Shown: positions 8,208 through 62,670 of the stretch, in pieces | How positions within the stretch are numbered: position 1 is the stretch's first letter | Layout: each line of letters begins with the position of its first letter | Origin: a virus | Taxonomy: Duplodnaviria > Caudoviricetes | IMG/VR virus record: IMGVR_UViG_3300024346_000005 | Direction: 5' to 3' (one strand) | Length of the DNA: 64,000 nt | Translations under genes and position numbers: made by a program | The notes under the pieces: generated by a model | The model's database searches: none | The model's input: only the letters and a program-made list of their open reading frames with translations | What the model was told of the DNA's origin: nothing

Positions 8208-8280
8208 GGGCGGATAATTTAATTGGTCAAAATGCTCTGCTTATAACGGAGTTATGAGGGATCATGGCCCTCTCTGCCTA
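8208..8280 (+). tRNA. tRNA-Ile(TAT)
   Basis: Cloverleaf: GGGCGGA/TCTGCCT acceptor stem, CTCTG-CTTATAA-CGGAG anticodon arm, GAGGG/CCCTC T-stem. No encoded CCA. Confidence 0.85.
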
Positions 8281-8323: not shown

Positions 8324-8405
8324 GCCCCCTTGGCGTAATTGGTAGCCGCTACGGATTTAAAATCCGTTGACTTTAGTCGTGCCGGATCGTACCCGGCAGG
8401 GGGTA
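8324..8405 (+). tRNA. tRNA-Leu(TAA)
   Basis: GCCCCCT/AGGGGGT acceptor stem, ACGGA-TTTAAAA-TCCGT anticodon arm, long variable arm, GCCGG/CCGGC T-stem. Confidence 0.88.
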
Positions 8406-8437: not shown

Positions 8438-8746
8438 ATGTCTTTCAAGTATAAAATAAGTCAGTCATACTGTTGGTATAATAACGGAAGTATGATTGTG
8501 AAAATGTACTTCATCAACGAGATTCCATTTACCTTCGATGAATTACCTGACGGGCACTTATACGACCAAGACCTCTGTAGAACGGCAGATAAGTATCGTG
8601 CATATGAACCAGATGATTTATTTAAGAACTCATTCTATCTTATAGACGAGGAAGCACACCCATTACTTTTTGATATGGACCTAGAAAACCCCCAAGACCT
8701 TCCAGATGAAGGTTATGAGTTTTTGCGGCAGGACTTATCTTCATAA
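8438..8746 (+). CDS. Hypothetical cyanophage protein
   Basis: 102-aa ORF after a TAAATA late-promoter core. Confidence 0.65.
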   Translation: MSFKYKISQSYCWYNNGSMIVKMYFINEIPFTFDELPDGHLYDQDLCRTADKYRAYEPDDLFKNSFYLIDEEAHPLLFDMDLENPQDLPDEGYEFLRQDLSS

Positions 8747-8840
8747 ATAATGGTGCTTATTCGTGGTTGTTTAGGCAAAGATTAAGGGGCAGAAATGCTC
8801 CTTTTCTTGTATAAATAAGTATAACCACGAATAAAGTAGA
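8743..8840 (+). promoter_or_regulatory. Dual late-promoter / antisense-arm / terminator cassette (copy 1)
   Basis: ATAAATA, arm GCTTATTCGTGGTTGT, hairpin GGGGC-AGAAAT-GCTCC-TTTT, TATAAATA (8810-8817), arm ATAACCACGAATAAAGT, ATG. Confidence 0.75.
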
Positions 8841-9386
8841 ATGAATAATTATTACACTTATGCATATTTGCGTGAAGATGGAACACCATATTATATCGGT
8901 AAAGGTAAAGCAGGTAGAATTAATAATACCTTACACACTATTCATCTTCCAGTAAAAGAAGAAAGAAGAATATTCTTAAAGAAAAATCTTACCGATGAAG
9001 AAGCAAGGAAGCACGAGATTTATATGATTGCTGTTTTAGGTAGAAAAGATTTAGGAACAGGAATTTTAAGAAATATGACCGATGGTGGGGAAGGTTGTGC
9101 CGGTCGTGTTTTAAGTGAAGAAACAAAAAAGAAGTTGAGTGATAGTCATAAAGGAAGAAAGAAAAGTGAGGCACACCGAAAAGCATTAAGTGAGGCGGCG
9201 AAGAAAAGAAAAGCAAGTGAAGAAACAAGAGAAAAAATGAGTAAAGTTTTTATGGGAGAAAATAATCCGTCTTTTGGGAAAAAGTGGTGGAATAATGGTG
9301 TAGAAAATAAACTCTGTAAAGAATGTCCCGGTGAAGAATATGTTTTAGGATTTCTGAACAAGTATTGGATGAATAAACATAAATAA
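8841..9386 (+). CDS. GIY-YIG (Seg-like) homing endonuclease with NUMOD3 repeats
   Basis: '[19 protein letters not shown]', 'GILRNMTDGGEG' and 'LSEETKKKLS' repeats. Confidence 0.85.
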   Translation: MNNYYTYAYLREDGTPYYIGKGKAGRINNTLHTIHLPVKEERRIFLKKNLTDEEARKHEIYMIAVLGRKDLGTGILRNMTDGGEGCAGRVLSEETKKKLSDSHKGRKKSEAHRKALSEAAKKRKASEETREKMSKVFMGENNPSFGKKWWNNGVENKLCKECPGEEYVLGFLNKYWMNKHK

Positions 9387-17025: not shown

Positions 17026-17134
17026 TTGACAGAATACTCATAATACTGCTAGACTAGGTTTGTCCCCGTTGAAGATGAGACTTTAATCCACTTAAAGAAC
17101 CGTCCACTGGGGGTCTTCACAGGACCCCTTTTTT
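17026..17134 (+). ncRNA. Possible short promoter-terminator transcription unit (~70 nt)
   Basis: TTGACA-18-TAGACT, then a GGGGTC-TTCACA-GGACCCC-T6 terminator with no substantial ORF between them. Confidence 0.4.
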
Positions 17135-17178
17135 GTTGTATAATTATATAAATAATAATATGGTAGGTTTCGCCACTT

Positions 17179-17721
17179 ATGTATTATACTTACGCATATC
17201 TAAGAGAAGATAAGACTCCATATTATATTGGTAGAGGAAAACATCATTCTGGATACAAATATCATAGAATGACTCAAAAACATACTTGCGGTATACCTCC
17301 ACAAGAAAGAAGATTAATCTTAAAAGATAATCTATCAAAAGAGCAAGCAATCAAACACGAAGAATATATGATTGACTTGTTTGGTTTAGTTTGGGATGAA
17401 ACTGGGGTATTAAGAAATCACGTTAGAGATAGTCGTGGTGGTAGTTGCAAAGGTAGAAAGCTTTCAGAGGAAACTAAACAAAAAATATCTGCTGCTATGA
17501 AAAATAAATGGCAAAGTGGTCTTTATGATACTGATGAATATAGAAATAAAATATCAGAAAGTAATAGAAAAAATCCAAGAGTCAAACAACATAGTGAAGA
17601 AACAAAAGAAAAACAAAAAAAGGCAAGCACCGGAAGACCTCAAAGCGAAGAGACTAAGCAAAAAAGGTCTGAAAGTATAAAAAGGTGGTGGACAGAAAAA
17701 AAACTGGCACAAGACCCTTGA
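17179..17721 (+). CDS. GIY-YIG/NUMOD3 homing endonuclease
   Basis: '[19 protein letters not shown]' and NUMOD3 repeats; TATAAATA at 17147-17154. Confidence 0.85.
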   Translation: MYYTYAYLREDKTPYYIGRGKHHSGYKYHRMTQKHTCGIPPQERRLILKDNLSKEQAIKHEEYMIDLFGLVWDETGVLRNHVRDSRGGSCKGRKLSEETKQKISAAMKNKWQSGLYDTDEYRNKISESNRKNPRVKQHSEETKEKQKKASTGRPQSEETKQKRSESIKRWWTEKKLAQDP

Positions 17722-23045: not shown

Positions 23046-24431
23046 AAGTAAAAACACTTGTGATACTAGAACAAGCGATTGAAGAAGGTGTGCGGCGTGG
23101 TTATCGTCGTGCTCATAAGCATATTGAGAACCCGACTGAAGAGTCTATCTGTGACCATATTGAAGAGTGTGTAATGGCACAAATTTACGAATACTTTACC
23201 TTTGAGGACGAAACTTATGTCTGAACGCTCACAAGCATTTATGAACGCAGTATGGGATTGTAGGAACAATCAAGGTGCTGATACTGAAGAGAAACTGGTT
23301 TCTGCAATCCTACAAGTTGCCGCAGAAACTGTAAGGTTTTATAATGCTCAAGACAATTTGATTGTTCTGGATAAAAATGATATGCTACAACTCGCACAGG
23401 AACTTGACGAATAATCAAAGTCTTGCTATGATAACTAAGTATCTGAACCACTTTGCCAATTTATGATCAAACCCATTAAAGAAGAGTTTCCTCACGGAGA
23501 TGGATTTCCTATTAAAATAACTCATAAGGATGGTAAAGAACTAAAGGATTTCAAGACCTGCTATTTCCAGACCGAAGACCACGCTCAAAAGTACATTGCC
23601 CGTAACAATTTCAAAAAGAAAGATTACACTATTATCTACAAGAACGAACAATGACCACACGCACTTATACTCAAAAAAACGAAAACCAATGGGAATGGGA
23701 AGAAACTCCTGAAACCATTGAGGCACTTAAACAACTTCACGAAACAGTAAAAAAAGTAAATGACGGAAAAAAAACTGATTGATGATTGCTTTTATATTGA
23801 AAAAGCAAGATGGGGTGTTTATCACTCTTATAATAAAGAAGAAAAACGACTCATTACATCACTGACCGAGGAAGGTTGTATTAATGCCACTAGGTACTAT
23901 ATGAAAGGTCTTCAAGAAGGATTTATGGAAGTAATTACTCATCAGGGAAGCGTGGATGGAAAACTCTGATTATCCTTATCATACTCTGGACTCTACCACA
24001 CCTTGGTATGAGTGGTTGTGCTACTCCGAAATTTGTCATCAACTGAATGTACCAAATCAACCAAGTGTCGGTAGATTTATGAGGTACAGACAATATCTTA
24101 AAGAAATAGGAGTTTTGTGATGAGATTTAGATTATTTGATTGGTTTCTCAAAGATTATGAGATGCCTGACAAGTACAAACTTATCGTTTCTGATGAGCAC
24201 GATAATGAGTATTGTCTTGTAGGACTTTGTTCTTCTCTTGCCAAGCACGTTGCTATACTTGAAGAACGCATTACTACTCTGGAACAAAAGTATGAAGGTG
24301 CTCTTATAGACATTAAGCGTCTTGAAGAAGAGAATGTAGAGACTACAAATTGTCTGTATGAAAATGCCAACTCTATAGATGCAGTTGATGCCCGTATAGA
24401 TATTCTTGCCGAACATTATATGAATAAATAG
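23042..24431 (+). other. Cluster of small hypothetical ORFs (23042-23224, 23217-23414, 23463-23654, 23760-23969, 24117-24431)
   Basis: Co-directional short ORFs. Confidence 0.6.
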
Positions 24432-24517
24432 TGATGCTTATTTGTGGTTATTTAAGCAGAATGGGGGCAGAAATGCTCCTTTCCTTGTATAAATAACTAT
24501 AACCACAAGTAAAGCAG
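24424..24517 (+). promoter_or_regulatory. Dual late-promoter / antisense-arm / terminator cassette (copy 2)
   Basis: ATAAATA, GCTTATTTGTGGTTAT, GGGGC/GCTCC hairpin, TATAAATA (24488-24495), ATAACCACAAGTAAAGC. Confidence 0.75.
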
Positions 24518-25118
24518 ATGGAATATTATACTTACGCTTATTTGCGTGAAGACGGCACACCTTATTATATTGGAAGGGGAAAGCATCAAAAAAAAATCAA
24601 AATATAGAAGAATGAACACTAAATTTGGTCATAGTGTTTCTGTTCCAAATGAAAAAAGAAGAATTATACTAAAAGATAATCTTTCTCTTAACGATGCTAA
24701 TAAACACGAAATTTATATGATTTTCATTTTCGGTAAAAAATATGACGGAACAGGTATATTGAGAAATCTTGTAGATGGTGGAACTGGTGGAGGTGTTGCT
24801 GGTAGAAAATTAAGTGAAGAAACAAAAAATAAAATAGGAAATGCAAATAGAGGTAAAACTCGTTCAGAAGAACATAGAAGAAAAAATGGTGAAGCAAAAA
24901 AAGGTAACACTAATTGGTTAGGTAAAACTCATTCAGAAGAAACTAAAGAAAAAATAAGAAATGTCCATAAAGGAAAACCATTTCCAGGAACTCATAATAA
25001 TAATAAAGAAACAAAATGGTGGAATGATGGACAAATTAACAAAAGAAGTGTAGAATGTCCTGGTAAAGAATGGAAATCTGGAAGATTACCATTAAAACCC
25101 TATAAAAAGAGAAAATAA
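24518..25118 (+). pseudogene. GIY-YIG/NUMOD3 endonuclease frameshifted at an A9 tract
   Basis: ATG at 24518 reads [24 protein letters not shown], then A9 (24588-24596). The rest of the protein is in the +1 frame; A8 would restore it. Confidence 0.8.
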
Positions 25119-35689: not shown

Positions 35690-37823
35690 GATTTCGTAAC
35701 ATAGAATTTAGGTGGAGCACCTATAACAAAAAGCACGAACTCGTCAAGTGGTATAAGTTAGAGGAGAGGAATTATTCTTATGTGATTGCTTTATTTGATA
35801 AAACCAACGAGGGTTACAATATGAGAACTATTGGTGATAGGTTCTTTGAGGACAAGGATGCTTGGGTGGTAGGAAAACACGCAATTGAGTTTCTAAATGC
35901 TATTTTTGAGATTGAAAGAATTGAAGAGGAACTGAAATGACTAACACCGCATACCAAATCTGGGAAACATTCAAAGCAGAACTTACACAACCAGCAACAG
36001 ATGATATGAAAGAAGCATTAGCATCTTCTATCCGTGTGATTTCTTCTATCATTCATAGAGATGGAGTTCTTGAAAATGAACCTTGGCATCTTCATATTGC
36101 TGATGAACTGAATGAATATGCTGATAATGTGGAGGCACTATGACTGAAAGGGCAAAAAGAATTTATCGTGCTTGGGAAGATAAGTGGGTGGACAGTACAC
36201 ATCACGAAGAACTTTCTCTTGCTGCTGCTATTCGTGAGATTGTGAATGAGTTTCAGTATTACCAGTGTTGTGAAGAAGAAGGTGTAGAAGATATGGTAGT
36301 TGATGCTCGGGTGCTTTATGACCTTGCTAATGAATTGGAGGAACTGAATGACTGACCTTTCCAGAAAGACTGAACCAAAATTGGAAAGTATTAAAGAAAT
36401 CGCAGATTATTTGAATCTAAAATATAAAACAAATCTTCTTTGGGCAAACTTCACAAGAGAAAAAAGAAATGATGAATGGTATAAGAAAAATACTCCAACT
36501 TCATCACCCTTTGTAAATCAAAATGACGGACTAATGATTGACCTTTCCAGAAAGACTGAACCAAAATTGGAAAGTATTAAAGAAATCGCAGATTATTTGG
36601 AGGCATTATGAAACCAGTAAAAATCACAGCAGAAATCACACTCACTCCTGAAATGTTTAGTAGGTGGAATGAAGGCGACTTACCAGAAACTGAACTACAG
36701 TATCATCACTTTATTGAGAAGGTACTCTATTGTAAGTTTGGTGCTTGGAAAGATATTGGTGGTTATGAGGACTTTATCAACAAAACAATTGATGATAATG
36801 GAAACGGACTGAAACTGACTATTGAGGAACTGAAATGAAACTCGTAGAAACGATTGAAAGGTGTGAGACCATACTATCTAAAAGATACGAATATATTAAA
36901 CAAGAGTTAAATCATCCAGAAGAAAAACTTAAATTAGTTTTTAGTGATAATCATCGTAATGAATTAATTGATGAGAAAACTGAACTTTTTGAGATGTTGT
37001 ATAACTTGAACTTTATAAAATTTGAGAGTAATATTCAAGAACTTGATGAGGTATTGGAATGACTGACGACAAAAAACTTATAAAATATTTTAACCGAAGA
37101 CTTACTGATGAAGAATTAGATAATGAGTTACATTTGGATTTTTCACAATCAAAAAAAATAGAAGACCTAAAGTTTTCAAGAGAAACTCCAGCACCTTATA
37201 TTCCTCCCACTTATACTCCAACTGTTCCAAGTGATTGCTCGGCAGAAAGAGCACAAGAGTTTTTGAATAAATTTCAAGAAGTCTATCTTGCTAGTGATGA
37301 TGATAAGTATGTAATTGCTACTGTTATTCGTATGATTGTTTCTAGTCCCGATTTGGTTGATTTAACCGAAACTGATTTACTTGACCTTGCCGATAATATT
37401 TCAAAATTATGAGTAAATCCTACATTTCGTGTTACAATAATGAGACCAAAGAGTTAGAGCACGACGAACAACTACTCAATTCACTACAAGGAACTATGGC
37501 AACGATTGACCCGTATTCAGTTAAAAAAGAAGCACTTGATGAGTATCGTATAGATACAATTGAGGAACGACTTACTCGTATTGAAGATAAAGTTGATTTA
37601 CTCATTTCTCAACTTAAAATAGAGTTTTATAAGAAAAATGACGGGACATCCAGATGACATTATACTCACAAATCCCTCAAAGATGTTTGAGTATGAAAAA
37701 CTAGCAAGAAATATTGATAATTGTGAGAATGTAGAGGAACTACAGATTTCACTCAAAGGTATGTTAAAGTTGTATATGAAACAACAAGAAGTAACGGCAG
37801 AAGTATTAAAAATGAGAATGTAA
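35686..37823 (+). other. Cluster of small hypothetical ORFs (35686-35940, 35937-36143, 36140-36355, 36348-36611, 36608-36838, 36835-37062, 37059-37412, 37409-37657, 37638-37823)
   Basis: Mostly ATGA-overlapping ORFs. Confidence 0.65.
36353..36599 (+). repeat. Perfect 61-bp direct repeat (36353-36413 and 36539-36599)
   Basis: Identical TGACCTTTCCAGAAAG...CAGATTATTTG copies. Confidence 0.9.
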
Positions 37824-37982
37824 TGAAAATTGATATTACAATAGAAGATTATGGTATAATTATAAATGCTCTACACTATTATAAGAAAGTAGAGAAGAAA
37901 GGAAACTTTCAGCAGTATGATGACGAAAGAATTAATTCCTTGAGAGACAAACTCTCGCACCAAATTATATGGAACAAAATGA

Positions 37983-38090
37983 ATAAATAATGATGCTCTA
38001 ATGTGTTCGCATCCATAAGAGTGGGAAGGGTGTCTTCGGGCACCTTTTCTTGTATAAATAGTATTGCGAACACAATTTAGAAGCAGAACT
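37983..38090 (+). promoter_or_regulatory. Dual late-promoter / antisense-arm / terminator cassette (copy 3)
   Basis: ATAAATA, GCTCTAATGTGTTCGCAT, GGTGTC-TTCG-GGCACC-TTTT, TATAAATA (38053-38060), TTGCGAACACAATTTAGAAGC. Confidence 0.78.
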
Positions 38091-38786
38091 ATGGTAAATC
38101 CTAATAGGTTTTATACTTACGCATATTTGCGTGAAGATAAGACACCTTATTATATTGGTAAAGGTAAAGGTAATAGGGCATATAAAAAGCATCGAAAAGG
38201 AATAGGTGTCCCAAAAGATAAATCGAGAATTATATTCCTCAAACAAAACTTAACCGAAGAAGAAGCATTTAGACACGAAATCTATATGATTGCTGTTTTT
38301 GGTAGGAAAGATTTGAGAACTGGTATTCTTCACAACCTTACAGATGGTGGTGATGGTGCTTCTGGATGGGTTCCAAGTGAAGAAACTAAAAGAAAACAAA
38401 GTGAAGTGAAAAAAGGTAATACTTATATGTTAGGTAAAACTCTTTCAGAAGAAACCAAAAGAAAAATGAGTGATACGCGAAAAGGTAAAACTCATTCAGA
38501 AGAAACGAAAAGAAAACAAAGTGAGGTAAAGAAGGGTAAAACTTATTCGGAAGAAGCAAAAAGAAAAATGAGTGAGGCACATAAAGGTAAAACTCTTTCA
38601 GAAGAAACCAGAAGAAAAATGAGTGAGATACGAAAAGGTAAAACTCATTCAGAAGAAACTAAAAGAAAACAAAGTGAGGTAAAGAAGGGTAAAACTAAAG
38701 GTAAAAAGTGGTGGAATGATGGTTGTGGAAATTGTAAAAGGATGGTAGAATGTCCCGGTGATGGTTGGAGACTTGGAAGAAAATGA
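38091..38786 (+). CDS. GIY-YIG endonuclease with multiple NUMOD3 repeats
   Basis: '[19 protein letters not shown]', about six '(H/L)SEETKRK(M/Q)SE.KKG' repeats and a 'KWWNDG...CPG' C-terminus. Confidence 0.88.
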
Positions 38787-52913: not shown

Positions 52914-52981
52914 GGACAGCACAGACCCCCTCCACAGGGGCACCAGATGCCCTATAATAGTCTCATACACACAGAAACCTG

Positions 52982-53482
52982 ATGAACATCAACGGATACG
53001 AAATCAAACCCTTTGCTAACCTTAAAGGTGCTGACCTTTGGGGTGCTAACCTTCGGGATGCTAACCTTAAGGGTGCTAACCTTGAGGGTGCCGACCTTGA
53101 GGGTGCTAACCTTGTGGGTGCTGACCTTGAGGATGCTAACCTTCGGGGTGCTAACCTTGAGGGTGCTGACCTTAAGGGTGCTAACCTTGTGGGTGCCGAC
53201 CTTCGGGATGCTAACCTTCAGGGTGCTTACCTTGAGGGTGCTGACCTTGAGGATGCTAACCTTAGGTATGCTAACCTTAAGGGTGCTGACCTTAAGGGTG
53301 CTAACCTTGAGGGTGCTAACCTTGAGGGTGCTAACCTTGTGGGTGCTAACGTAACTGGAACCATTCTTGAGAAGAAAGAAGTTCTTCAAGATGATAAAGA
53401 CCTCAAGATTAAAGAACTTGAGGAAGAAAATGAGAAACTTAAATCTACACTTAAGTCTCTTAAGGCACTGTTGGACACCTGA
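52982..53482 (+). CDS. Pentapeptide-repeat protein with C-terminal coiled coil
   Basis: More than 20 tandem A(N/D)LxG repeats. Confidence 0.92.
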
Positions 53483-55749: not shown

Positions 55750-55853
55750 ATAAATAATAATGCTCTAATGAGTTCGCATCCATAAGAGTGGAAAAGGTGC
55801 ATTTTGGCACCTTTTCTTGTATAAATAGTATTGCGAACTCAATTTAGAAGCAG
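55750..55853 (+). promoter_or_regulatory. Dual late-promoter / antisense-arm / terminator cassette (copy 4)
   Basis: ATAAATA, GCTCTAATGAGTTCGCAT, AAAAGGTGC/GCACCTTTT hairpin, TATAAATA (55820-55827), TTGCGAACTCAATTTAGAAGC. Confidence 0.78.
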
Positions 55854-56600
55854 ATGTATTACTACACTTACGCATATTTGCGTGAAGATAAGACACCTTA
55901 TTATGTTGGTAAAGGAACTGGAGGAAGAATTTATTCCACCAATAGAAAAGGACTAAAACCACCAAAAGATAAATCAAGAATAATATTCCTAAAACAAAAC
56001 CTATCAGAACAAGAAGCATTCAGGCACGAAATTTATATGATTGCTATCTTCGGAAGAAAGGATTTAGGAACTGGTATTCTTCATAATAGAACTAATGGTG
56101 GTGAAGGTGCTTCTGGCACTATTAAAAGTGAAGAAACCAGAAGAAAGATTGGTGAAGCAAAGAAAGGTAAAAATAATCCCCAATACGGTAAACGAGGTAA
56201 GAATTCTCATAATTATGGGAAATCTCCTTCTGAAGAAACCAGAAAAAAATTAAGTGAGAGGCAGAAAGGTGAAAAAAATCATAATTATGAAAAATCTCCT
56301 TCTGAAGAAACCAGAAAAAGAATGAGTGAGGCACAGAAAGGTGAAAATAATGCTATGTACGGTAAATCACGTTCAGAAGAAAGCAGAAGAAAACAGAGTG
56401 AAGCACTTAAAGGTAAATATAGTGGAGAAAAACACTATCTTTACGGCAAATCACCTTCAGAAGAAACTAAAAGAAAAATAGGTGAGGCAAATAAAGATAA
56501 AAAATGGTGGAACGATGGCAAAGGAAATACTAAATTTACTGAAGAATGTCCCGGAGAAAATTGGGTTCGTGGTCGTGGAAAAAAACTATGTGACACCTGA
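55854..56600 (+). CDS. GIY-YIG endonuclease with NUMOD3 repeats
   Basis: '[19 protein letters not shown]', 'GILHNRTNGGEG' and 'SEETR(R/K)K' repeats. Confidence 0.88.
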   Translation: MYYYTYAYLREDKTPYYVGKGTGGRIYSTNRKGLKPPKDKSRIIFLKQNLSEQEAFRHEIYMIAIFGRKDLGTGILHNRTNGGEGASGTIKSEETRRKIGEAKKGKNNPQYGKRGKNSHNYGKSPSEETRKKLSERQKGEKNHNYEKSPSEETRKRMSEAQKGENNAMYGKSRSEESRRKQSEALKGKYSGEKHYLYGKSPSEETKRKIGEANKDKKWWNDGKGNTKFTEECPGENWVRGRGKKLCDT

Positions 56601-56629
56601 CGAACTGGCACAAGGAGACTTGATTTTTA

Positions 56630-57010
56630 TTGAGATTTTGGTATAATATCTGTATTACAAGGAGAATGATGGACTTTCCCATATTTCTAAACAAACTTAT
56701 AATCGGCAACAAGTATCTTCGGCACACCAGTTTTTGGTATTGGTTTCGTCTTACTAACCATTCTAATTGGAGAATGGACGACCATCAAAGATACTGGGAC
56801 TTCTGGTATTCTATCAACTCTGGATGGTGTGATATGGAGTATGATTGGGAGTTTGAGAAGTTCTGGGGTAAAGGTGCCAAAGCAGAGCAGATTGTACTAC
56901 ACCGAGAAGATTATGATGCTATTGTAGAAATGTTGAATGAACCTCCAAATGCTGCTATAATGGAGAGGTTGAAAGAACTTATGAATCGTAAAGCACCTTG
57001 GGATGAGTAG
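56630..57010 (+). CDS. Hypothetical Trp-rich cyanophage protein
   Basis: ORF after a dyad promoter; true start is probably near 56666. Confidence 0.6.
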   Translation: MRFWYNICITRRMMDFPIFLNKLIIGNKYLRHTSFWYWFRLTNHSNWRMDDHQRYWDFWYSINSGWCDMEYDWEFEKFWGKGAKAEQIVLHREDYDAIVEMLNEPPNAAIMERLKELMNRKAPWDE

Positions 57011-61039: not shown

Positions 61040-62670
61040 ATGAAACTCTTCGTCGCTAAGTTCTACCAAACTCTGATTCTAAATGTTGCTACCATCGCCG
61101 CAATCGTTGTTGGAATTGTACAATTTGGCATTCGTGCTTATAAAGAAAACAACGGCGCAGAAAAGACCCGCAAGGTGATTCAAACCGTGCTGCGGTTCGT
61201 TGATACTATTGTGGGGCAATTGCAGGCATTCGTTGATACTGATGTGCCAGTTGTAAAGGTGGCACCGAAAACTACCAAACGCCGCTGATTGGTGGTATTC
61301 TACTTTCATACCTGAGGAATTCATGAAACAAACTCATCGGTTCGTTACATTTAAAGAGGCACTTGTGTTTCTAATGAATGAGTTGCAATTGAGTAATCAG
61401 GAGGCAACACATTTCATTTGGGACAATCAGTTTACTATGGGAACTGATCGGGCAATTTGGATTACTATGCCAATCTGAGAACTGTCACAAGGGGGGTTGC
61501 GGTTCCCCCCAAAACCTGATATTCTACTTTCATACCTGAGAAATTCAATGGTTTTCGTCATCTCCGAACTCAACGGTTGCACTTACAAACTGGACGCAAA
61601 CAATCAGCGGGTCCTAATGTATGCTCCGCTGCTATCTGATGGTTCATATGAAACTGCAGGGTCGGCATATGATTGGGTAGAGTGGGACCGTTTAGACCCT
61701 GATGTTCTAGAAGAAGCAGACCGTATTCACAAACTGTTGCTCGCAGAGGTGTAATTATGAACTACGATAATTTCTGGAAGAACGTATTAGGGCAGGAAGA
61801 TTGGGTTAATGAACTAGTCAAATGGGAGAATGCTCATCCAGAGTATACACCCTTTCAAGAAGATAAAGACTCTCAACGCCAACAAAACACCAAACAAATC
61901 TAGATGACAACTTTTCTCACCAAAGCACAACGCCAAATCTTGATTGATTGGTATATTGACTGCCTGATTGATACTGAGTCTGAGTTTGTTGATGGTAGTG
62001 AAGAAGCAGAGCGTCAAAGTTTGGCATCGATGAATAACTCTTACTTCTATGAGTACGTTCAGGAGATGATGCCTAACTGTATGGAAGACCTTGCGAAAAT
62101 GAAACAGGATATGACAGTCTGACTAGTGGCACAAGGGGGGTTGCGGTTCCCCCCAAAACCTGTTATTCTACATTCATACCAAACAAATCCAAATGAAAAT
62201 TATCTGCTCCAAACCTAATGCTAAGGGTGGATATCACGATGTTGGTATGACTCACCGTAGGTTGACTGGTGATTATTCAACCGTACGTAACTTCATTCGT
62301 TATGGTGTACCTAGTGACTTCTATGGTAACACTCTGCGGTTGGAAGTCTTCTACGGTGAGAATATCTATCGGGCACCAGATAAAGTGTTGTATGTGACAG
62401 TCTAGAAAGTGTCACAAGGGGGGTTGCGGTTCCCCCCAAAACCTGTTATTCTACATTCGTACTCAAGCAATTCACCAAATGACATTCGACCGAGCACAAC
62501 TAGTTGAAGATTACATTCAACAACTTATTGAGGGTATGGATTATAAAACTATGGAGTGTCTGGTTTATGATACTCTGAAGGATAATCTCTCGGATTATAC
62601 TGATGAGCAACTCATCACAGAGGTTACAGAATACAATCCAGAACTGTTGGAGGATGTGCCAGTGGCATAA
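61040..62670 (+). other. Single-gene early cassettes (61040-61288, ~61548-61754, 61904-62122, 62193-62405, 62479-62670)
   Basis: Most ORFs are directly preceded by their own dyad plus TATTCT promoter. Confidence 0.7.

Follow-up and report, generated by a model that had tools for sequence, protein, structure and literature searches.

Homing endonucleases are the main selfish elements in T4-like phages, and to our knowledge the control that renders them harmless has been worked out only for a handful of genes from coliphages and Aeromonas phages. The T-even genes for I-TevI, I-TevII, I-TevIII and segB, as well as mobE of the Aeromonas phage Aeh1, carry a hairpin by which the ribosome site is concealed in RNA made from upstream promoters; late transcripts start from a late promoter within this hairpin and are unable to form it (PMC2988022). 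Such translational masks are also found on the T4 late genes e, soc and 49, as reviewed in the same article (PMC2988022). In 2009, Dassa et al. described hairpins ahead of endonuclease genes from marine metagenomes that contain TATAAATA together with two motifs complementary to each other (PMC2677866). These "fractured gene" loci, for which a cyanophage origin is probable, resemble the locus reported here in that free-standing endonuclease genes of the GIY-YIG and other types carry RNA hairpins in their 5' UTRs, ten of which contain TATAAATA; in the passages of that paper that describe them, and by which they are compared here, the hairpins are read purely in cis, with no upstream box, nested terminator or arm diversity (PMC2677866). 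The principle of a hairpin with a late promoter is already known, and marine examples have been published.

Selfish elements elsewhere limit their own enzyme by means of an RNA complementary to the start region of its message, as with RNA-OUT and RNA-IN of IS10 (PMC5006887) and art200 of IS200, in which a trans RNA and mRNA structure are found side by side (PMC4513863). The copy-number-dependent inhibition logic of IS10 would apply to replicating phage DNA. The cassette described here resembles these systems in that complementarity, but unlike in IS10 and IS200 its predicted RNA would come from an inverted repeat that lies upstream on the same strand. A short regulatory RNA made from a phage late promoter and a close terminator, as predicted for the cassette, has a counterpart in StxS; as that report describes it, StxS is, unlike the cassette RNA, an antitermination by-product with host targets and is not complementary to a downstream leader (PMC7547250).

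The window, meaning the whole stretch of 64,000 nucleotides that was analysed (one strand of the IMG/VR virus record IMGVR_UViG_3300024346_000005), is part of a T4-like cyanophage. Its nearest isolate is the T4-like cyanophage Synechococcus phage S-SRM01 (Kyanoviridae), where the third of the cassette copies described below is found at 94% identity. The leaders resemble T4-type masks in that a homing endonuclease gene of a T4-like phage is preceded by a stable hairpin with its 3' strand over the start region, and in that a putative late promoter of the TATAAATA type lies within the hairpin, such that predicted late transcripts lack the 5' strand. They differ from those masks in four respects: a strong GC hairpin with a U tract is nested in the main hairpin, a second box of the late-promoter type lies at a fixed distance upstream, the 5' arm has a covarying local hairpin of its own, and the leader as a whole is conserved as a portable module that occurs with many arm variants and with nucleases of several families. 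In a literature search, neither the upstream promoter box nor the nested terminator was found described, and the same holds for the local 5' hairpin and for so broad a range of arm variants.

Organization of the cassette

Each cassette is a control module of about 105 bases placed ahead of a selfish nuclease gene. Its 5' half consists of an [A/C]TAAATA box, the 5' arm, a linker and a GC hairpin with a U tract, and its 3' half of TATAAATA and the 3' arm, followed by the start codon of the homing endonuclease (Table 1). Copies 3 and 4 begin with an ATAAATA box, four bases and TGCT. Their 5' arm reads GCTCTAATG-T/A-GTTCGCA and their 3' arm TGCGAAC-A/T-CAATTTAGAAGC, the GC-rich inner hairpin of 11-12 pairs terminates in CCUUUUCUUG, and the nuclease ATG lies 2-6 nt past the 3' arm. 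A 29-nt core of this scaffold is found exactly twice in the window and in 0 of 100 shuffles. Copies 1 and 2 have the same scaffold as copies 3 and 4, with arms built on GTGGTTRT/AYAACCAC instead. The preliminary description of a scaffold common to all four copies, with the arm sequences replaced, is borne out by this part-by-part comparison.

The arms of copies 3 and 4 form an outer stem of 18 pairs around the GC hairpin, with folding energies of -39.7 and -39.4 kcal/mol and z scores of -4.6 and -5.9, which no shuffle equals. In each of the four copies the outer stem wraps the inner hairpin, with energies of -31 to -40 kcal/mol and z scores of -3.9 to -5.9. An Rfam search of the window returned two tRNAs only, and no match at the cassette. 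Two tRNA genes (8208-8280 and 8324-8405) lie upstream of copy 1, with one short open reading frame (8438-8746) between. One further nuclease gene of this family, the fifth (ATG 17179), has a leader (region 17036-17181) with a GC hairpin, a U tract and TATAAATA (17147). No complementary arms were found in this region, whose fold does not surpass that of shuffles (z 0.17), and it represents the cassette in either a simpler or a decayed form.

Table 1. Positions of the cassette copies, their parts and the nuclease genes in the window
Feature	Position	Strand	Remarks
Copy 3 whole mobile unit (cassette and homing endonuclease gene)	37983-38786	+	804 bp
Copy 3 cassette	37983-38093	+	
Copy 3 upstream late-promoter-type box ATAAATA (P_up)	37983-37989	+	T4 rule puts start at G37995
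Copy 3 TGCT	37994-37997	+	
Copy 3 5' arm GCTCTAATGTGTTCGCA	37995-38011	+	Swap base T38004
Copy 3 local 5' hairpin (5' arm and linker, 3' arm absent)	37995-38022	+	From fold
Copy 3 GC hairpin and U tract (CCUUUUCUUG), intrinsic-terminator-like	38023-38052	+	12-pair stem; hairpin proper 38023-38050
Copy 3 putative inner late promoter TATAAATA (P_in)	38053-38060	+	Predicted start G38066, two nucleotides into 3' arm
Copy 3 3' arm / mRNA leader TGCGAACACAATTTAGAAGC	38065-38084	+	Swap base A38072; ends 6 nt before ATG
Copy 3 homing endonuclease gene, 231 aa, GIY-YIG-like N-terminus	38091-38786	+	Pfam NUMOD3 E 8e-21; PHROG 314 'homing endonuclease' E 2e-23
Copy 4 cassette	55750-55856	+	
Copy 4 upstream box ATAAATA	55750-55756	+	Immediately 3' of TGA stop of upstream ORF
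Copy 4 TGCT	55761-55764	+	
Copy 4 5' arm GCTCTAATGAGTTCGCA	55762-55778	+	Swap base A55771
Copy 4 GC hairpin and U tract	55790-55819	+	Hairpin proper 55790-55817; from fold
Copy 4 inner TATAAATA	55820-55827	+	Predicted start G55833
Copy 4 3' arm TGCGAACTCAATTTAGAAGC	55832-55851	+	Swap base T55839; ends 2 nt before ATG
Copy 4 homing endonuclease gene, 248 aa	55854-56600	+	Pfam NUMOD3 E 9e-40; PHROG 314
Copy 1 cassette, other arm group	8743-8843	+	5' arm 8755-8770, TATAAATA 8810-8817, 3' arm 8821-8837, ATG 8841
Copy 2 cassette, other arm group	24424-24520	+	5' arm 24436-24451, TATAAATA 24488-24495, 3' arm 24499-24515, ATG 24518

Nuclease genes and mobility of the unit

Genes preceded by the cassette encode NUMOD3 repeats and match PHROG 'homing endonuclease' families, and an N-terminal motif, YTYAYL...YYIGKG, is visible. 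A scan of the copy 3 and copy 4 proteins for Pfam GIY-YIG gave no match at E 0.01 or better; the gene of a related cassette matches PHROG 5123, 'homing endonuclease with GIY-YIG motif'. GenBank calls several of the NUMOD3-repeat nucleases 'translation initiation factor 2', namely those of S-SRM01 (QPX48079.1; L001, 3109-3867), B3, B23 and Sf-CH5. This label is probably a misannotation, most likely arising because the repeats are rich in lysine and glutamate.

Mobility of the unit can be seen at copy 3. In related contigs (L183-L185, around 1480-1510) the site is empty and the neighbouring genes are joined by an ATGA stop/start overlap. Metatranscriptome contigs from two RNA libraries join position 37973 to 38777/38780, which is the joint of the empty site; the RNA data examined were Logan contigs, as small shares of 4 of the 16 listed runs. 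The first bases of the 804-bp insert are exactly ATAAATA and its last bases are the nuclease stop codon, which restores the ATGA overlap with the downstream gene, and the insert is flanked by the near-repeat TGGAA[C/G]AAAATGA (37970-37982 and 38774-38786). As read from these junctions, the copy 3 nuclease unit is a presence/absence polymorphism at a defined intergenic site. Given that the insert starts at ATAAATA, the upstream box is part of the mobile element, not of the resident genome.

Among the isolate phages searched, the cassette was found in S-SRM01 and B3/B23 only; in S-SRM01, a cassette with arms of the copy 3 type occupies 62407-62520 of MW015081.1. The same cassette also stands ahead of proteins on three IMG/VR contigs (L088, 6559-7344; L035, 4401-5219; L109, 2503-3021), with the N-termini MELKEYHYVYYSYEE, MTSQSPRIYLYKITF and MNKVSVQALNECF, respectively. 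These proteins gave no Pfam match and no informative PHROG match, and they may represent undescribed families of homing endonucleases.

Pairing of the arms

The sole difference between the arms of copies 3 and 4 is T38004/A38072 in the former versus A55771/T55839 in the latter, which turns a U-A pair into an A-U pair. This reciprocal T/A versus A/T swap between the copies at 37983 and 55750 had been reported in the preliminary description, which is correct in every detail. Among 15 members of this arm family, drawn from the window, S-SRM01 and viral metagenome contigs, U-A is found in 7, A-U in 8 and a mismatch in none. Both states of the swap are present in different contigs and contexts, such that it is old and widespread and predates this genome. 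Pairing is well supported by this difference between copies 3 and 4, which adds no new principle.

To follow pairing across the module, cassettes were taken from three IMG/VR scans that were anchored on different parts of it, each of which gave at least about 115 loci. After deduplication, the matches listed come to more than 100 cassettes, among which there are 65 unique arm pairs and 29 different variants of the 5' arm. The arms retain 13-18 base pairs in all cassettes among these matches. For the 65 arm pairs and 29 variants among the matches listed, arm positions 1-14 are paired in 86-100%, positions 4-16 each show 2-5 canonical pair types, and position 10, the site of the swap, is U-A in 54 arm pairs and A-U in 11. 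A canonical-pair fraction of 1.000 is true by construction, and the informative values are the per-position pairing rates and the shuffled value of 0.57. An alignment of 31 cassettes with MAFFT and RNAalifold recovered just 7 of the outer pairs because arm lengths vary, and pairs were then counted per cassette with RNAduplex; RNAalifold gave 11 pairs with double changes. Taken as sequence evidence, these patterns support selection on both arms to pair.

The stems among the matches listed contain 30 G-U or U-G pairs versus 0 A-C mismatches, an asymmetry that points to a constraint on the RNA of the sense strand and counts against a DNA palindrome or operator. On this sequence signature, the pairing of the arms is at the RNA level and on the sense strand. 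The duplexes are also specific: across the 29 variants, the cognate arm/leader duplex has a mean energy of -19.3 kcal/mol versus -10.1 +/- 3.5 kcal/mol for non-cognate ones, and for 22 of the 29 arm variants among the matches listed the best leader is the cognate one.

Promoter-type boxes, hairpins and putative terminator

A scan that did not require the upstream motif [A/C]TAAATA-NTRR-TGCT recovered it in 94 of 95 unique cassettes among the matches listed, and the distance from the box to the arm is fixed across these cassettes. All 21 NATAAATA/TATAAATA boxes in the window lie on the + (coding) strand, with 0 on the - strand. NATAAATA has been reported as a cyanophage late promoter (PMC2984593), and CTAAATA as a late promoter of Aeh1 in the paper from which the T4 spacing rule for late-transcript starts is taken (PMC1524935). 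The NATAAATA/TATAAATA boxes of the window are probably late promoters of the phage, mostly without T at -13. Boxes of the form CATAAATA or AATAAATA (9378, 15040, 57022 and 8410) are also found 17-28 nt before open reading frames of 1876, 650, 424 and 102 codons. Two other readings of the upstream box were rejected. A stop-codon cap does not fit, with the second TAA present in 77 of 104 cassettes and TAAATA invariant among the matches listed, and an upstream open reading frame does not fit, with no conserved ATG in NTRR.

The inner TATAAATA is present in all cassettes among the matches listed, with one variant that has CATAAATA, and lies 3-5 nt ahead of the 3' arm in every one of them. By the T4 spacing rule, the predicted +1 of the late mRNA falls 1-3 nt inside the 3' arm, and the leader of copy 3 is by itself unstructured (-2.5 kcal/mol, z 0.7). 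The predicted upstream start, the G of TGCT, is both the first nucleotide of the arm and the first paired base of the local 5' hairpin. When 37995-38052 is folded, two hairpins result (-22.1 kcal/mol, z -3.7). The local 5' hairpin forms in 29 of 29 arm variants among the matches listed and its stem covaries with the linker, with 0 of 20000 permutations as good; the stem of the GC hairpin also covaries across cassettes.

A simple terminator scan of 37700-38400 made 0 calls, missing the GC hairpin because its longest stem pairs the U tract with an upstream A tract; when the 7-pair GC core is taken, the tail UUUUCUUG has 6 U in 8. Between the end of the outer stem, of 13-18 pairs, and the AUG there are 2-8 nt. 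The masked stretch ahead of the ATG contains AAGCAG but no visible canonical Shine-Dalgarno sequence, and therefore sequestration refers here to an occluded landing region, not to a defined Shine-Dalgarno sequence.

Two kinds of repeat were also noted in the window. Units of about 70 nt with CTGGCACA, a GC hairpin, TATAAT and CATAC are present in many copies (22152-63860; families D7, D8, D11 and D19), both between small genes and directly 3' of the copy 4 nuclease gene (56590-56650), and they resemble early-promoter stem-loop (PeSL-like) cassettes. At 52969-53433, a 15-nt unit is present in more than 20 tandem copies (family D1), and this array may encode a five-residue protein repeat.

A probable lock in cis

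We consider it rather probable that the cassette is a translational mask of the T4 type to which a nested terminator has been added, that it is unlocked by the inner late promoter, and that it serves as the portable leader of a free-standing homing endonuclease gene. The arms would pair as RNA over 20-25 nucleotides just 5' of the start codon and, given that they would cover the region upstream of it, ribosomes are proposed to be unable to load. Most RNA coming from upstream would be halted at the GC hairpin and U tract, and RNA that reads through would have both arms and be translationally locked. From the inner TATAAATA late promoter, the nuclease mRNA would begin 1-3 nt into the 3' arm (G38066 in copy 3, G55833 in copy 4), such that the late mRNA would be without the 5' arm and its leader would be open. 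For this lock, we infer the termination, the transcription starts and the repression of translation. The T/A and A/T states of copies 3 and 4, like the other arm family of copies 1 and 2, would be compensatory changes that built up in independently mobile, module-exchanging cassettes, and would not be tuned to individual nucleases. A lock that acts in cis only leaves the upstream [A/C]TAAATA box and the covarying local 5' hairpin without a role, and both count against it. The empty terminator scan and the lack of a canonical Shine-Dalgarno sequence weigh against the lock as well.

Other explanations

It had been proposed in the preliminary description that orthogonal sRNA-leader pairs allow several nuclease paralogues to be controlled independently; in the form considered here, the arm families are selected specificity classes and each paralogue is under its own sRNA. 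The energies uphold part of this. In a 4x4 duplex matrix the cognate pairs reach -16.8, -17.4, -21.6 and -21.8 kcal/mol versus -6.6 to -10.5 kcal/mol across the two arm groups, such that the two groups would not, by these models, cross-react, and the per-site difference between cassettes is greater in the arms (0.49) than in the terminator cores (0.32). Within the groups, however, cross-pairing reaches -17.4 and -16.4 kcal/mol for copies 3 and 4, and -13.2 and -14.7 kcal/mol for copies 1 and 2; the one swapped pair that separates copies 3 and 4 costs just 4-5 of about 22 kcal/mol, and these two copies therefore represent one specificity, not two. The arms and nuclease types are moreover many-to-many. 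Among the matches listed, one nuclease type stands behind up to 8 arm variants, the same arms stand before different nuclease types, and as many as 6 arm variants accompany a single terminator type. Non-cognate pairs that share a genome (n=24, five genomes) differ no more than pairs drawn at random across the population do, with means of -10.7 versus -10.2 kcal/mol, and the swap itself predates this genome. Given this free combination and a co-residence that equals background, the diversity looks like compensatory drift and module exchange among independently mobile elements. No evidence of selection for independent control of paralogues was found, either in the matching of arms to nucleases or in co-residence in the five genomes, and designed orthogonality is improbable. 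That the inverted repeat acts as DNA, as a cruciform, as a site of recombination or as an operator to which the nuclease binds, is more improbable still. I-TevI is known to repress itself through an operator over its own late promoter (PMC2988022), and the 3' arm of the cassette lies directly 3' of the inner promoter, but the asymmetry of 30 G-U to 0 A-C is a strand-specific RNA constraint, the arms do not follow the nuclease family, and they are 50-55 nt apart with another hairpin between.

An explanation that is compatible with the cis lock, and that we regard as quite possible if somewhat short of probable, is that the upstream box is a late promoter for a two-hairpin RNA of 52-58 nt, reaching from the G of TGCT to the U tract, that blocks the late nuclease mRNA. 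Its hairpin loop and 5' strand would pair with the 5' end of that mRNA and, by analogy with RNA-OUT on the IS10 transposase mRNA (PMC5006887), it would act as a copy-number-dependent brake; IS200, with its sRNA and mRNA structure, is a further analogue (PMC4513863). The box is conserved at a fixed spacing, is of the late-promoter type that is found before large open reading frames and on the + strand only, fits the published NATAAATA and CTAAATA consensus sequences (PMC2984593; PMC1524935) and is exactly where the mobile insert begins, and the predicted +1 opens the 5' hairpin that all 29 variants among the matches listed retain with a covarying stem. By duplex and cofold energies, the predicted RNA is complementary to the translation start region of its target. 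Its nucleotides 1-17, comprising the 5' strand and apical loop, form a duplex of -12 to -19 kcal/mol with the opening 12 nt of the predicted late mRNA, with a net cofold gain of -11 to -16 kcal/mol for cognate pairs. The sRNA-leader pairs of the preliminary description hold to the extent that the box, the 5' hairpin and the terminator-like hairpin would give a discrete leader-complementary RNA of about 55 nt. The RNA and its action in trans are so far predictions, and the cis hairpin known from T4-type homing endonuclease genes accounts just as well for the entire covariation (PMC2988022; PMC2677866). Both promoters would be late, such that repressor and target would be made at the same time, which also counts against a trans RNA. 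A scan anchored on the upstream half yielded no solo sRNA module, with 84 of 84 upstream halves among the matches listed leading into the inner promoter and 3' arm, and no such RNA of a T4-like phage appeared in the literature search. The two arms are both on the + strand, with a complementarity that arises from an inverted repeat, not from opposite-strand transcription as in cis-antisense RNAs; the cassette could work like the IS10 RNA-OUT type, yet is not a member of it.

Significance

The mechanism is ordinary in kind, and the cassette is an interesting variant of it with a possible antisense RNA. The principle of a late promoter in a hairpin is found here as a portable and widely shared cyanophage module, and its natural compensatory variants are ready-made mutants. 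As a more tentative extension, each cassette may make a late RNA of about 55 nt that represses in trans all nuclease mRNAs with a matching arm, including those of hundreds of replicating genomes and of co-infecting phages, in which case the arm variants would be the specificity classes of a brake that senses copy number. We know of no such trans RNA described in the T4 superfamily. If the extra promoter does make an antisense RNA, it would be a rare phage-encoded trans regulator of a selfish gene, and the arm variants would be a natural set of largely non-cross-reacting RNA pairs.
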